A stretch of DNA of 64,000 nt, taken from positions 3,977 through 67,976 of the forward strand of contig FR901744.1 in the NCBI GenBank assembly GCA_000437675.1, read 5' to 3'. Under the pieces are notes generated by a model. The model was not told the DNA's origin. It did not search any database and was given only the letters and a program-made list of their open reading frames with translations. The position numbers were made by a program, and so were the translations under genes. The stretch is from Prevotella sp. CAG:891 (GTDB taxonomy: Bacteria > Bacteroidota > Bacteroidia > Bacteroidales > Bacteroidaceae). Shown here piece after piece: positions 559 to 53,780 of this stretch (its first letter is position 1; every line of letters begins with the position of its first letter).

Positions 559-789
559 TTTATACCCTATTTGCTTCCTGTTTTAAAGGTAATATGCATG
601 TGAATTTGTAGGCTCTTATGAAAGATTCTCTCTGGCTTTTCAGTCGGTTGTGCTTGCATAGAGTCAGTTTTTGTATGGTAGTATTATTCTGTCTATTTTA
701 TTAGGTGCTTATTGTCCGTACGTTATGTTAGGAAAAGTTTCTCATATTCCTTTGTGGTAAGTGTTAAACGCTATCTTTGCTTAAATGTA

Positions 790-1110
790 AAACTCTATTA
801 AATTGTAATCTTTCAATTTTTAATACATTCCGGTGTTTGAAGCATAGATTCGTATTTTCTTCAAATTGTCTCCGTAATTGTTGAAATTAGTTCCGCGATT
901 GTCAAAATTAGTTCCGAGCTAGTTGAAATTAGTTCCGAGCTAGTTTTGGCAAATTCGGAGCTGTTGATAATCAGGGCTTTAGAAAATACATTAAAGTCGG
1001 TTTGGCGCACGACTGTTTTGTTCGGAGATTGGAGCAAGGGTGGGTGTCCGATTTTTACTCTTATTAAATTATTTGTTAAAGCTGCCATGCGTATAACAAG
1101 CGACGAAGTG
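790..1110 (+). repeat. Tandem-repeat element, copy 1. It has three 21-bp units with a TTAGTTCCG(A/C)G core at 880-942, a degenerate fourth unit, the CTGTTGATAATCAGG hairpin and a conserved 3' block TTTTACTCTTATTAAATTATTTGTTAAAGCTGCCATG.
   Basis: Direct sequence similarity to the copies at 38.6-38.9 kb and 53.2-53.6 kb. The element boundaries are approximate. Confidence 0.7.
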
Positions 1111-1555
1111 CTATCCAATCCGATTGTTTTGAGTTTTGGCTTAGTGGAGTAGGTAAAACTATACGTCTAATGACCAAGGTTGGCCGTTGTAGGGGCTGTT
1201 ATCTATAATAATGTAGAGCCAAAGTTGCATTCCATTGATTTACATTCAGTTGTTGATAGTATCTGCATAAGGTGGAGAACTATTATTGAAAAATGACATT
1301 ACATAAGTTGGTGCAGAATAGTTACTTATTAAGAAATGGATAGATGTTTGATGCTGAAATGCAGAACTATGCAGCTTGTGCTGTTGTTGAAGGAAGTGCT
1401 TGTTGCTGTTCGAAATGGCACAAATTATGGTACTAACGTGCATTTTTTTTAGTTTTTAAAGTGCTTGATTATACGAAAAAACGTATCTTTGCAAAAAATT
1501 ATGAACGAAGGATGGTAGGATAAAGTCGTATCACCTTCCATGATAAATATAATAC

Positions 1556-13476: not shown

Positions 13477-13520
13477 TTCTGAAACTAAAGGTTTTGTAGA
13501 ATGGTTATGGAGAACTTTGC

Positions 13521-14075
13521 CTCAGTCGCAAAAGCTTGTGGTAAAATTCAAACATGCATCCCAGGTTTCAGACAGGCCTATTAGCCTTACTTTCTGTTGT
13601 AACACGATCGATGTCAAAGAACGCTGAATGAATAAAATAAGGAATACTGTTTTTTCATCCGTCAAGGCTCATGTGCAGCTTATCAATGCTGTAGTGCTGC
13701 CTTTATTTCCGACTCCAAAGTCATTGCAAACCGAATGCAGAGTTAAGTAAGCTTGCTTGTATGAGCTATGCTGAGGTGAAGCCTGATTTCGCCGTAGGCA
13801 AAGATACAACAAGTACAACCCGAAATCCAAATTTTTTGGGCACCTAATATCGCAGCTCGAAAGTTTACCACACCTCCGAATGGACATTCAGCCCTTTATT
13901 TACGGGCATTTCAGTGCATTTTCCACACGCGAAAAAAATGAAATCGGGATATAACATTTTATCTCTTGCCGATTCTCAAAACGTACGAAGCAACAACGTT
14001 TTGCCTCACCCAAATGCTACAGCCACCACACCTTTTTACTGCTGGTTCGAACTTTCCCATTCAAAAATCACAGTC
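13521..14075 (+). repeat. R2 intergenic repeat, intact copy of ~550 bp. It carries a conserved hairpin CAAAACGT-N10-ACGTTTTG and a short ORF (MKSGYNILSLAD...) that is conserved in both copies.
   Basis: Roughly 85-90% identical to 38209-38550 plus 39057-39300. Confidence 0.7.
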
Positions 14076-18687: not shown

Positions 18688-19186
18688 TTATTGCGCACAA
18701 AATTAAGCATTTCTTTTCTTACTTGCAACATTGTTGGAATGCTTTTCTTGTTTTTTTTTTCGTGGTTGAGTGAACAGGCATCGTAAATGCTTGTTCTGCT
18801 GTTTTTTTCGCAACTTTATGCCATGAATGCCGTTTATTTTCCAAGAGTACCTTTTCTAGTAGATTGTGCCTTGAGGGGGTATGGTGCTCATTTTCTTACT
18901 TCGCGCGTATAAATTTGCATTGTCATGTTGTTATCCTTTACAAAAAACTTCGACGCACCTTGATTGTGCTGTGTTTTCGCTTTCTGAGTAAAATCTTCTG
19001 ATTTAGGTTCTGTAGGAATAGTATGTGTTGTATGGTTATTATTAGTCAGTTTGCTTACTTTTTATGGGTTGTAAATTATATAAATGTTTGTATGTGTACT
19101 ATAATAAATGTAATTATCTGATTCTCCGCACATTTTGCTTCAAAGGCTAAATGATTGTTCGAATCTCCGCACTTTTGGGAATTTCT

Positions 19187-19280
19187 AAAGTGTTGGTTAT
19201 CAGTAGTTTCACGATTGTCAAAACAAGCTCGGAACTAAATTCAATTAGCTCGGAACTAATTCACACAGTCGCGGAGTAAT
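19187..19280 (-). repeat. Tandem-repeat element, truncated copy 2 in inverted orientation (two units plus the hairpin region)
   Basis: Its reverse complement, ...AATTAGTTCCGAGCTAATTGAATTTAGTTCCGAGCTTGTTTTGACAATCGTGAAACTACTGATAACCAAC..., aligns with the 3' half of the arrays in copies 1, 3 and 4. Confidence 0.65.
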
Positions 19281-19609
19281 TTTTTACGATAGGCTGGTGT
19301 GGGGCTGTATCCCGGGAATCTGGCAAATAATGGCTATGTGCTTTTTGTATAATTTTGCTTTTGTGGAATTAGTCTTTTTATAATTATAGTGTGTTAGCAA
19401 TGATGCTGTATAAGAATGATATGCCATACTTTTCTGCTGTTATGTGTGCAGAATCAGCTCAGTGCGGATGTTAGAATTTACGAGGCTGCACGATATGTAA
19501 GTATAAAGAAAATCCCCGAATCAAGTTTGTGAATACTTGTCGGGGATGAATGTATATCAGTATATGTTCGTTGCTGACAACTGTTTGTCTGTTTTATGCA
19601 AGTGAGGTA

Positions 19610-38172: not shown

Positions 38173-38208
38173 TTGTAAAAGAGCAAGGTCATACAAGCGA
38201 AAGTTCGG

Positions 38209-38550
38209 CTCAGTCGCAAAAGTATGTGGTAAAACTTAACAACGCATCCCGGGGTTCAGACAGGTCTACCTGCCTTACTTTCTGAGGTGACAAAATGTCT
38301 AAGAACGCTGAATGAATAAAATAAGGAATACTGTTTTTCATCTGTTTAGGCTCATGTGCAGTTTATCCATACTGCAGTGCTGCCTTTATAGCTATTGTGA
38401 TGTCAGTGCAAACCGAATCTTGTTTTGTGCGAATGTCAGTGCAAACCGAATACAGAGCGATGAGAGCTGGCTCTCAAAAGTTATGCTGAGGTGCAGCCTA
38501 AGTTCGCGAAGCAAAGATACAACATGCACAACCCGAAATCAAAATCTTTT
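38209..38550 (+). repeat. R2 repeat copy B, left part, homologous to 13521-13853
   Basis: Direct alignment. It contains an internal 17-bp duplication. Confidence 0.7.
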
Positions 38551-39056
38551 AGTTTTTAACGTTTTGTATGGCTAACCGTTTCAAATCTCACCGGTCCCTT
38601 CGCCGTAAATGTTAAACAGTAAACCGTCGAGTAAGTGAAATTATACGAAAATTTTCAGCTTATTTTTCCATCTGCCTGCCGTTGTTAGAACCACGCGATG
38701 AGCTATCGTCAAAATTTGCTCCGTGATTCTCCGAATTAGTTCCGAGCTAGTCGAATTTAGTTCCGAGCTAGTTTCAATAATCTTGGAACTACTGATAATC
38801 AGCGTTTTCAGAAAAACGCCCCAATCGGTTCTACAACTGCTCATTCCGCCTTGCAATAATGCTAAAGGCGAACCCGTACATTTTTACTTTAATTCACCTG
38901 TTTGTTAAATCCGCCCCTGCGCACTCGAAGCCGCGAAATGTTTCCCCATTCAAAGTGATTGGTAGTTCCACGTTGAAGAACAGCTAGAAGCACAAAGTCG
39001 AAAATTACGGTTGGCATTTACTCGTAATGGTCATTACCCACACGTTGCAACATAGA
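38551..39056 (+). mobile_element. Inserted segment of ~506 bp that interrupts R2 copy B. It contains tandem-repeat element copy 3, with units at 38708-38798 and the hairpin at 38791-38803. It has no ORF.
   Basis: Absent from the otherwise colinear R2 copy at 13.5-14.1 kb. The junctions are flanked by a CAAAAT/CCAAAT-like sequence on both sides. Confidence 0.6.
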
Positions 39057-39300
39057 CCCAAATGCCCCCTAATATCGCACCTCAAAAATTTTCCCACATC
39101 TCCGAATGGGAAATAAGCCCTTTATCTACGGGCATTCCGGTGCGTTATTCACACGCGAAAAAAATGAAATCGGGATATAACATTTTATCTCTTGCTGATA
39201 CTCAAAACGTACGAAACTGCAACGTTTTACTTTACTCAAATGTCAAAGCCCCCACACCTTTGTGCCACTGTCCCGAAAGTTCTTTCCATTTTAATGGCTC
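39057..39300 (+). repeat. R2 repeat copy B, right part, homologous to ~13840-14075
   Basis: Direct alignment, including the conserved block CACACGCGAAAAAAATGAAATCGGGATATAACATTTTATCTCTTGC. Confidence 0.7.
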
Positions 39301-52926: not shown

Positions 52927-53212
52927 GCTGCAAAGTTAATGGAATTAGCATGCTGAACCAAAGATTTTTGATTTTTTATTTTGCTTATATTCTCGTTCAT
53001 ACAGGTGTTGCCATCAAATTTCCTTTGAAAAACATACCATGTCTTGAAAGAAACGATAAATTCTATCAACAAGTAGGCATTCAAATCTATTTTCTATAAT
53101 ACTATCGAAGTGTTATTGTTTTGCATCGTGTTCTTGCACTGCATCTGTTTGTTTCGCTTAATCAGGGGATGTACTTCAGTATAGCTTTTCGAACAAGTTC
53201 TCATTGCTCTGC

Positions 53213-53600
53213 ATCTTCGTCATAAATGTTAAACAGTAATCTGTCTTGTAAGTGAAATATTTTTAAATGTGATAGCTCGTATTATCCATCTGCATGTCGT
53301 TGTTTGAGTCATGGATAGGGCTGTTCTATCAAAGAACTCCGAGTTTGTTGAAATTAGTTCCGCGATTGCCCGAATTAGTTCCGAGCTTGTTGAAATTAGT
53401 TCCGAGCTAGTTCAGATTAGTTCCGAGCTAGTTTTGACAATCTTGGAACTGCTGATAATCAGCATTATTAAAATTACGCGAAAATCGGTTCTGTGCATGC
53501 TGAATTTGTTCAGAAACGAGGAACTTGGCGAATGTCGAATTTTCACTCTTATTAAGTTAGTTGTTAAATCCGCCATGAGTGTAGTAAGCAGCCAATGCTT
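53213..53600 (+). repeat. Tandem-repeat element copy 4, the most complete copy. It has four 21-bp units at 53347-53430, a degenerate fifth unit containing GGAACT, the GCTGATAATCAGC hairpin at 53450-53464 and the conserved 3' block ...TTTTCACTCTTATTAAGTTAGTTGTTAAATCCGCCATGAGT.
   Basis: Direct similarity to copies 1-3. The 5' block CATAAATGTTAAACAGTAATCTGTCTTGTAAGTGAAAT is shared with copy 3. Confidence 0.75.
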
Positions 53601-53780
53601 GCCAGTACAAAGTGTGTTAAGGTTATGCTTCGTGGAGAGGGTTGGCGTTTGCGTTAAAAAAATCATGATTCGCATTTATAAAAGACTATTATCCATGCTG
53701 TTCGTAACTGTGTGTAAGAAAATAGCCCGAAGCTGATGGGTGAGGCTTCGGGCTGAAGGTTTGTTTACGAGTAAGAAGTG

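Follow-up and report, generated by a model that had tools for sequence, protein, structure and literature searches.

Repeat elements in the window

The DNA analyzed here is a stretch of 64,000 nucleotides from Prevotella sp. CAG:891 (GenBank assembly GCA_000437675.1, contig FR901744.1, positions 3,977 to 67,976 of the forward strand), referred to below as the window. Its G+C content is 40%. Four intergenic loci in it carry directly abutting units of 21 bp, and this work is about the element that contains them. The genes around the four copies are of the housekeeping type (aminotransferase, IMP dehydrogenase, UvrD, RuvC, and an MscS-type channel). An earlier reading made by a model from the sequence alone (the original prediction) had described the loci as one family of non-coding elements with the geometry of protein-binding arrays. 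The loci do form one family of non-coding, modular, dispersed elements, but that reading missed their defining property, which is that the units are housed in a discrete transposable element. The family is best explained as a previously undescribed one, of a kind already known, hosted by Prevotella sp. CAG:891 and gut bacteria of the Prevotellamassilia group: the four loci would be copies of a non-autonomous DNA transposon some 510-575 bp long (MITE, for miniature inverted-repeat transposable element) with a central 21-bp minisatellite. We give this reading a probability of about 0.75.

Tandem Repeats Finder detected 21-bp arrays at 880-945 (3.1 copies), 38732-38772 (2.0 copies), and 53338-53433 (4.6 copies), with 0% indels in each. 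The fourth, a minus-strand copy at about 19180-19292, was found from inverted pairs reported by a repeat finder run on the window. The 12-mer TTAGTTCCGAGC, with at most one mismatch, occurred nine times in the window (0.16 expected), a count reached in none of 100 shuffled sequences, and the palindrome CTGATAATCAG occurred seven times under the same tolerance (1.09 expected). A profile of 68 copies matched exactly four places in the window, which were copies 1-4. Alignment of the four copies showed a leader (AAATGTTAAACAG), abutting units, a final inverted unit, the palindrome, and a tail (TTTTTAC..TTATTAA..TTTGTTAAA). The leader of copy 1 was diverged and copy 2 was degenerate, and the flanks of the four copies were mutually unrelated. 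The features of the window are as follows.

655-1222, plus strand: copy 1, whole element, placed by comparison with the consensus ends (5' end uncertain by some tens of bases)
866-949, plus strand: units of copy 1
954-962, plus strand: degenerate inverted unit of copy 1
964-974, plus strand: palindrome of copy 1
1052-1080, plus strand: tail block of copy 1
13838-13842: empty paralogous site for copy 3, in the uninterrupted host repeat at 13513-14056
19009-19430, minus strand: copy 2, whole element, degenerate, with ends placed by reading the sequence (5' end uncertain by tens of bases)
19227-19259, minus strand: units of copy 2
19205-19213, minus strand: inverted unit of copy 2
19193-19203, minus strand: palindrome of copy 2
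38551-39067, plus strand: copy 3, whole element, 517 bp, within a copy of a second repeat family
38552-38576 and 39033-39057, plus strand: inverted ends of copy 3
38715-38773, plus strand: units of copy 3
38782-38790, plus strand: inverted unit of copy 3
38792-38802, plus strand: palindrome of copy 3
53137-53712, plus strand: copy 4, whole element, about 576 bp (5' end uncertain by about 35 bp)
53224-53236, plus strand: leader block AAATGTTAAACAG of copy 4
53333-53433, plus strand: array of copy 4, one degenerate and four 21-bp units, with TTAGTTCCGMGM cores at 53354, 53375, 53396, and 53417
53442-53450, plus strand: inverted unit CTTGGAACT of copy 4, complementary to the unit stretch AGTTCCGAG
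53452-53462, plus strand: palindrome CTGATAATCAG of copy 4
53540-53568, plus strand: tail block TTTTCACTCTTATTAAGTTAGTTGTTAAA of copy 4

The profile match of copy 2 ran from 19275 to 19099 (E = 1e-29), and the complement of its 3' end reads GGTTCTGTAGG at 19007-19017. For copy 4, homology with independent copies extended over 53212-53637, and the best matches to the consensus ends were at 53137-53161 (16/25) and 53688-53712 (17/25). Its 3' end adjoins the terminator hairpin (53727-53757) of the convergent MscS-type gene. The intervals originally given for the four loci thus fall on real copies, but they cover only the inner parts of longer elements. The order of parts that had been described (a 5' block, a last inverted unit with GGAACT, the palindrome, and a 3' block) holds for copies 3 and 4 and partially for copy 1, and is degenerate in copy 2. 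The 21-bp phasing and the inverted last unit were found to be real, and the previous exclusion of CRISPR and REP repeats was correct; as to CRISPR, the units directly abut and have no unique spacers between them.

A match to the FopS small RNA family of Bacteroidetes (Rfam, 72 bits, gathering score 56) was also found at 491-559 on the plus strand, about 100-200 nt upstream of copy 1, and has no evident tie to the element.

Insertion, target duplication, and ends

Copy 3 interrupts one of two copies of another repeat (the host repeat). According to the repeat finder, positions 13798-13837 of copy A of this repeat correspond to 38511-38550 of copy B, and 13843-13869 of copy A correspond to 39068-39094 of copy B. 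Copy B therefore contains about 517 extra bases (38551-39067), made up of copy 3 with its leader and tail, which makes copy 3 a discrete insertion. When copies of the host repeat from other loci (denoted by L numbers) were compared, the alignments of the left and right flanks overlapped by 10-12 bp in at least nine uninterrupted copies (L076, L036, L118, L035, window copy A, L084, L111, L001, and L027), which is the signature of a target-site duplication. The flanks of L079 were CCATTTTTTTTG and CCAATTTTTTG, as against CCAAATTTTTTG in the empty copy. T-rich direct repeats flanked L079, L082, L015, and L069, and T-runs were present on both sides of several other copies. These T-runs, and the position of copy 4 beside a terminator hairpin, suggest that insertion prefers T-rich, terminator-proximal DNA.

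The host repeat is itself a second dispersed non-coding family of about 540 bp, found in the window at 13513-14056 and at 38201-38550 plus 39068-39282 (74-85% identical). A GTCAGTGCAAACCGAAT motif is duplicated in it at 38400-38450, and units of about 83 bp are repeated three to four times in L080. Many of the fetched contigs have copies of it. In the window, each of the two copies is located between convergent genes, and one of them hosts copy 3.

Similarity among copies from unrelated contexts starts at one common base (..CTG followed by TAACGTTTTGTATGGCTAA), and their 3' ends converge on ATTACCCACACGnTTCGTTACAGAG. At the 5' end the consensus is CTCTGTAACGTTTTGTATGGCTAAT, and at the 3' end it is ATTACCCACACGnTTCGTTACAGAG. 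The terminal 10 nt of the two ends are exact inverted repeats of each other, and an inner GTRTGGSTAAT is present in both. The best-preserved copy, L082, is 513 bp long and matches each consensus end at 24/25 positions. Its own ends are complementary at about 19-20 of 25 positions and its flanks are CAAATAA and CAAAATAA. A DnaA-box-like stretch (TTATCCACA) lies within the consensus of the 3' inverted repeat (..ATTATCCACAC..). This is probably a coincidence, and the stretch is poorly kept in the window (ATTACCCACAC and ATTATCCATGC, at 39033-39045 and 53688-53697).

Distribution and variation between strains

Other copies were collected by scanning for exact matches to two cores in phase (TAGTTCCGAGC-N10-TAGTTCCGAGC). 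Among bacterial genomes (one genome per species), this pattern was found in two places, in an uncultured Bacteroides metagenome-assembled genome and in an Ignavibacteriaceae metagenome-assembled genome. A single place was found among viral contigs, and this was an orthologue of the copy 1 region. Metagenomes, mostly of human gut, gave more than 118 loci among the matches listed. The 93 loci with full flanks reduced to 69 distinct contexts, and overall there were about 65-69 distinct gene contexts among the matches listed. When all open reading frames (ORFs) within 4 kb of the arrays were clustered over about 65 contexts, no neighbour gene family recurred, rep, par, recombinase, and regulator genes included. 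The sole recurrent ORF "family" consisted of the ORFs lying over the arrays themselves, on both strands. The two neighbouring genes can be oriented in four combinations, which were observed 13, 12, 10, and 9 times, indicating no bias. A BLAST search of plasmid and phage collections with the whole element gave no match.

The viral match (L003 10090-10483, IMG/VR IMGVR_UViG_3300045988_177304) was 98% identical over 328 bp to window positions 975-1300, in the copy 1 region. Either a prophage lies immediately to the left of the window, or this contig is chromosomal DNA that was filed as viral by mistake. In L029, L038, and L074, tandem paralogous small ORFs of about 91-100 aa (MEDKKVWLGIACLWILLLQK...; 14 ORFs) were found about 0.5-3 kb upstream of the arrays.

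Copy 4 was present between ruvC and the channel gene in 10 of the 10 strain contigs read. At this locus, L092 was exactly one unit (21 bp) shorter than the window. Among strains, the unit sequences at this locus differed, while the 750-bp flanks on each side were 99-100% identical. Length differences of 21 and 42 bp were found in another group of loci (L033, L034, L105, and L120). Thus, the array behaves as a variable-number tandem repeat that gains or loses whole units between strains.

The region around copy 4 is a hot spot for insertions. In 2 of the 10 strain contigs (L127 and L129, 758-2758), an IS66-family element (TnpB and DDE_Tnp_IS66) lies between ruvC and copy 4, and in L130 (95-1291) an insertion sequence with DDE_Tnp_1 interrupts the MscS-type gene. 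The ends of these two insertion sequences are unlike those of the 21-bp-repeat element. In L049 (about 1142-2805), about 1.66 kb of inserted DNA, with ACTAT at either side, interrupts a copy of the element after ..CGGAACTAT, while the orthologue L119 is intact, indicating that an insertion sequence landed inside the element.

Anatomy of the element and conservation of its core

Elements in which both ends could be placed were 506-555 bp long (copy 4, about 576 bp). Each begins with an imperfect terminal inverted repeat of 25 bp and a leader of about 185 nt, which are followed by the central array, the inverted core, the palindrome, a tail of about 250-300 nt, and the other terminal repeat. The first unit of the array is degenerate (..TTACTCCGCGATTGT); the next is often of the CCGCGATTG type, and units of the CCGAGCTWGTT type make up the rest. 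With degenerate ones included, there are usually 4-6 units, and 14 in one array. A single inverted copy of the unit core is found 14 nt beyond the array, and is followed by the palindrome CTGATAATCAG. In sequence terms, the last unit is followed by TTTCAACAAT, then by CTYGGAAYT (the inverse of AGTTCCGAG), then by RCTGATAATCAGC and the loosely conserved tail. The 12-mer CTGATAATCAGC was exact in 45 of 77 copies and had 1-2 mismatches in the others.

In a sub-family of loci (L029, L038, L071, L072, L074, L083, and L107), the usual inverted unit and palindrome are absent. The arrays are followed instead by AAAAAAAGAGTTAAAA and later by (C/T)CGGAA, and a convergent gene has its stop codon about 190-230 bp downstream of them.

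Position frequencies were determined on 206 units that the search pattern had not forced. Constraint was strongest at T6 (0.99), C7 (0.92), C8 (0.82), G9 (0.86), T16 (0.89), and A20 (0.94), while positions 10, 12, and 17-19 were free to vary. Each unit contains an imperfect 11-bp palindrome, AGTTC-C-GAGCT, which recurs every two helical turns. Mean pairwise identity, computed on 68 copies each differing by more than 10% from the others, was 0.86 for an unforced unit, 0.84 for the inverted unit with the palindrome, and 0.45-0.56 for the tail. This level of identity, the position-specific constraint, and the conserved order of unit types point to a core that is under selection, or to arrays that often convert one another.

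The approximately 110-nt core is made up of phased 21-bp units with an invariant TCCG, in ordered types, one inverted unit, and the CTGATAATCAG palindrome. It might be a selected functional module that transposition has scattered round the chromosome, serving as a binding platform or as a fold-back structure of RNA or single-stranded DNA. We put this forward tentatively, with odds that are rather against it. Such a module would explain why the core is better conserved than the transposon's own ends. Our preferred guess is that the phased units and the inverted copy may be a platform bound by a trans-acting protein, candidates being the mobilising transposase, an accessory factor, or a host DNA-binding protein. 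The palindrome within the unit would suit a dimeric DNA-binding protein.

A core of this kind might also account for 21-bp arrays with a TTAGTTCCGAGC core in an Ignavibacteriaceae genome and in a soil contig. The Ignavibacteriaceae array (L002 2700-2960) is intergenic and has nine units of GCGGATGTTAGTTCCGAGCTT, 17/21 identical to the Prevotella-group unit. The soil metagenome array (L043 6475-6790) is G+C-rich and also intergenic, with about 15 units of CGAACTAnTTAGTTCCnnGnn, each holding a 14-bp palindrome (GAACTAATTAGTTC). The two arrays have the core TTAGTTCCGAG(C) in common. A given 11-mer is expected in about 1 of 100,000 period-21 arrays, and the collections searched are very large. The match across phyla could therefore be due to chance or to a common binding motif.

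Weighing the explanations

The transposon reading brings together a non-coding element of less than about 600 bp, terminal inverted repeats, a target duplication with its empty site, and many dispersed copies. A transposase encoded elsewhere would recognise the ends and probably act in trans by DDE-type transposition. The element would insert at T-rich intergenic sites, often beside terminators, and duplicate about 8-11 bp of target; the array would then gain or lose whole 21-bp units, presumably by slippage or unequal recombination. Several observations weigh against this scheme. The ends are the best-kept part of a typical MITE, and it is therefore unusual that the centre is here better conserved than the ends (0.84-0.86 versus 0.45-0.56 for the tail). 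As the loci were gathered with an exact two-unit pattern, the apparent conservation of the units is inflated, though the third unit, the inverted unit, and the palindrome are outside that pattern. The inverted ends are degenerate in most copies, and only L082 has two clean ends. The clean empty-site evidence concerns one insertion event; an empty site for copy 4 was not recovered, the sister species (identified through RuvC homologues) having a different gene order upstream of ruvC. Finally, neither the fetched loci (about 1.1 Mb) nor the plasmid and phage collections yielded an autonomous parent whose ends match, and when end motifs were paired within 4 kb, the only element recovered was L082, itself a MITE.

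That the copies are debris of local segmental duplication, devoid of mobility, is hardly credible: four of them do lie within 64 kb, but their flanks are mutually unrelated, their termini are precise, common, and associated with a target duplication, and the census places the family in about 65-69 unrelated contexts over many contigs and samples. This census contradicts the local-debris outcome that had been named as a possible refutation of the original prediction. We likewise discarded, as practically without chance, the idea that the elements encode small proteins with SSELVEI-type heptad repeats. The composition of the unit leaves one frame open per strand, which accords with the 198 ORF clusters found in a protein database and with the 141-aa ORF of copy 4. 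This ORF had no Pfam match, however, and the database relatives were unnamed, domain-less proteins of 77-216 aa, often on short contigs. Copies 1 and 3 lack an ORF of at least 100 aa, and ORFs lie over the arrays on both strands. In the 77 copies, the stops of the plus-strand frame were spread over positions -39 to +384 (counted from the palindrome), and the open lengths were scattered on both strands. The lack of coding capacity noted before is thus borne out.

Could the element be a gene for a structured non-coding RNA, transcribed from the plus strand, in which the repeats fold onto the inverted unit as a long hairpin? The plus strand of copy 4 had a predicted fold of -78.2 kcal/mol (z = -4.18), equalled in 0 of 200 shuffles, while z was -2.18 for the minus strand. 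In the 77 copies, the nine positions of the stem between unit and inverted unit were 82% Watson-Crick, 12.7% G-T, and 1.6% A-C; departures from Watson-Crick pairing comprised 88 G-U versus 11 A-C in this stem, and 23 versus 7 in the CTGA/TCAG stem. A helix in the tail was paired in 60% as compared with 35-45% in shifted controls, which is suggestive only. The G-U excess, however, was nearly all due to C/T variation at three positions of the inverted unit, pairing-preserving A-to-G changes being rare (3/154). RNAalifold, applied to 68 copies, found only 10 pairs; the energy was -5.7 kcal/mol and the covariation term -0.6 kcal/mol. Compensatory double changes were all but absent, with a single sequence showing one at one pair (of 68 x 10). 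Structure conservation across copies, a check called for by the original prediction, thus lacked the support of covariation. A Bacteroidetes-type promoter-like motif, TTTG-N17-TATCTTTG, points into the array from the diverged leader of copy 1 (about 745-780, plus strand), but is absent at that position in the other copies. Neither a Bacteroidetes-type -7 promoter box at a fixed position nor a conserved terminator was found, and orientation to the neighbouring genes is random. No copy matched an Rfam 15 family at the gathering score; at E <= 10, the only matches were weak, miRNA-precursor-like hairpins far below threshold, and the other Rfam matches in the window, FopS and tRNA, are outside the copies. 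A dedicated RNA gene is therefore unlikely.

Equally improbable is the view that the arrays are primarily protein-binding sites of iteron, centromere, or operator type, kept by selection in otherwise ordinary intergenic DNA. It draws on the strict 21-bp phasing without indels, the constraint on T6, C7, C8, G9, and A20, the greater conservation of the core than of the tail, and the imperfect palindrome of each unit with the inverted copy that closes the array. Yet the common leader and tail, the inverted ends, the target duplication, and the empty site show that the array is part of a discrete mobile unit. The arrays occur in random orientation and context, without any recurrent rep, par, recombinase, or regulator neighbour, and four copies in 64 kb of chromosome are unlike a replicon origin or centromere. 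Of the features that define iterons, direct repeats of 17-22 bp in helical phase are present (period 21, 0% indels), while an adjacent initiator or partition gene and a single locus per replicon are not. As to the iteron or binding-array reading put forward originally, random orientation and the lack of a recurrent gene argue against plasmid iterons, arm sites of a cis-encoded recombinase, and promoter-specific transcription factor arrays, while the conservation of the unit leaves room for a trans-acting binder. Within the transposon reading, protein binding could be what the core does, but it would not take the place of that reading.

Significance

The family accounts for recurrent spurious "hypothetical proteins" (198 clusters in the protein database). 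As many of the ORFs over arrays are on short contigs, the elements may be one cause of broken assemblies in gut metagenomes of the Prevotella group. The arrays are also ready-made variable-number markers for strains of an uncultured, prevalent gut species. With the transposon reading, this would be the second, independent bacterial MITE carrying a minisatellite, after that of Porphyromonas gingivalis, which suggests that the architecture recurs in Bacteroidales. If the core is indeed a binding platform, the element would be a vehicle distributing a regulatory or structural site across the chromosome.

Comparison with known systems

Plasmid iterons and type II centromeres such as pSK41 parC also consist of directly abutting repeats (about 20-22 bp, on one face of the helix) and are accompanied by a nearby inverted copy. 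They occur once per replicon, beside a rep or parR gene whose product binds the repeats. The present element differs from them in having no such neighbour gene and many chromosomal copies, and in that its array lies within a transposon. Correia elements (CREE) and ERIC-type MITEs are abundant and intergenic, and host factors can bind to their internal sequence, which can also fold into RNA hairpins upon co-transcription. Unlike the element described here, they lack an internal minisatellite and are conserved in their inverted ends.

In agreement with the original prediction, the element could not be assigned to a named family, either through Rfam or through literature searches for the unit on both strands, which returned unrelated papers only. 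The literature on MITEs of Bacteroides and Prevotella yielded only BrickBuilt, a MITE of P. gingivalis and P. gulae in which a 23-nt minisatellite lies between a leader and a tail and the inverted ends are IS5-like (Klein et al. 2015, PMC4596501). A central tandem array between arms is also found in eukaryotic MITEs with tandem repeats, such as DTC84 of the clam Donax (PMC3879986), and in MITEPgRS and MITE464 of P. gingivalis, which are likewise non-autonomous, with a short array between non-repetitive arms; sequences and hosts are unrelated in each case. MITEPgRS is described as having 41-nt repeats and repetitive flanks (PMC4596501).

BrickBuilt is always intergenic, has 19 copies with a strain-variable number of repeats, is predicted to fold into long stem-loops, matches no Rfam family, and showed bidirectional promoter activity in E. 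coli reporters (PMC4596501). Both elements are non-coding and intergenic, occur in Bacteroidales, and are built of a leader, abutting repeats, and a tail between short inverted ends; in both, repeat number differs between strains at one locus, Rfam gives no match, and some copies lack part of the leader or tail. They differ in unit length (21 bp versus 23 nt) and share no detectable sequence similarity, the motifs AGTTCC, GGAACT, TTCCG, and CGGAA being all absent from the text of the BrickBuilt paper (PMC4596501). The ends are CTCTGTAACG... here and IS5-type GAGACCTTTGCA in BrickBuilt, and the target duplication is T-rich and of about 8-11 bp as compared with short and variable. The arrays have 2-6 units (14 in one case) rather than up to 22.8, and one inverted unit and a palindrome follow the array only in the present element. 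Because unit length, ends, and unit motifs all differ, we rejected membership of BrickBuilt, which is thus the closest described analogue of the element and not a homologue.

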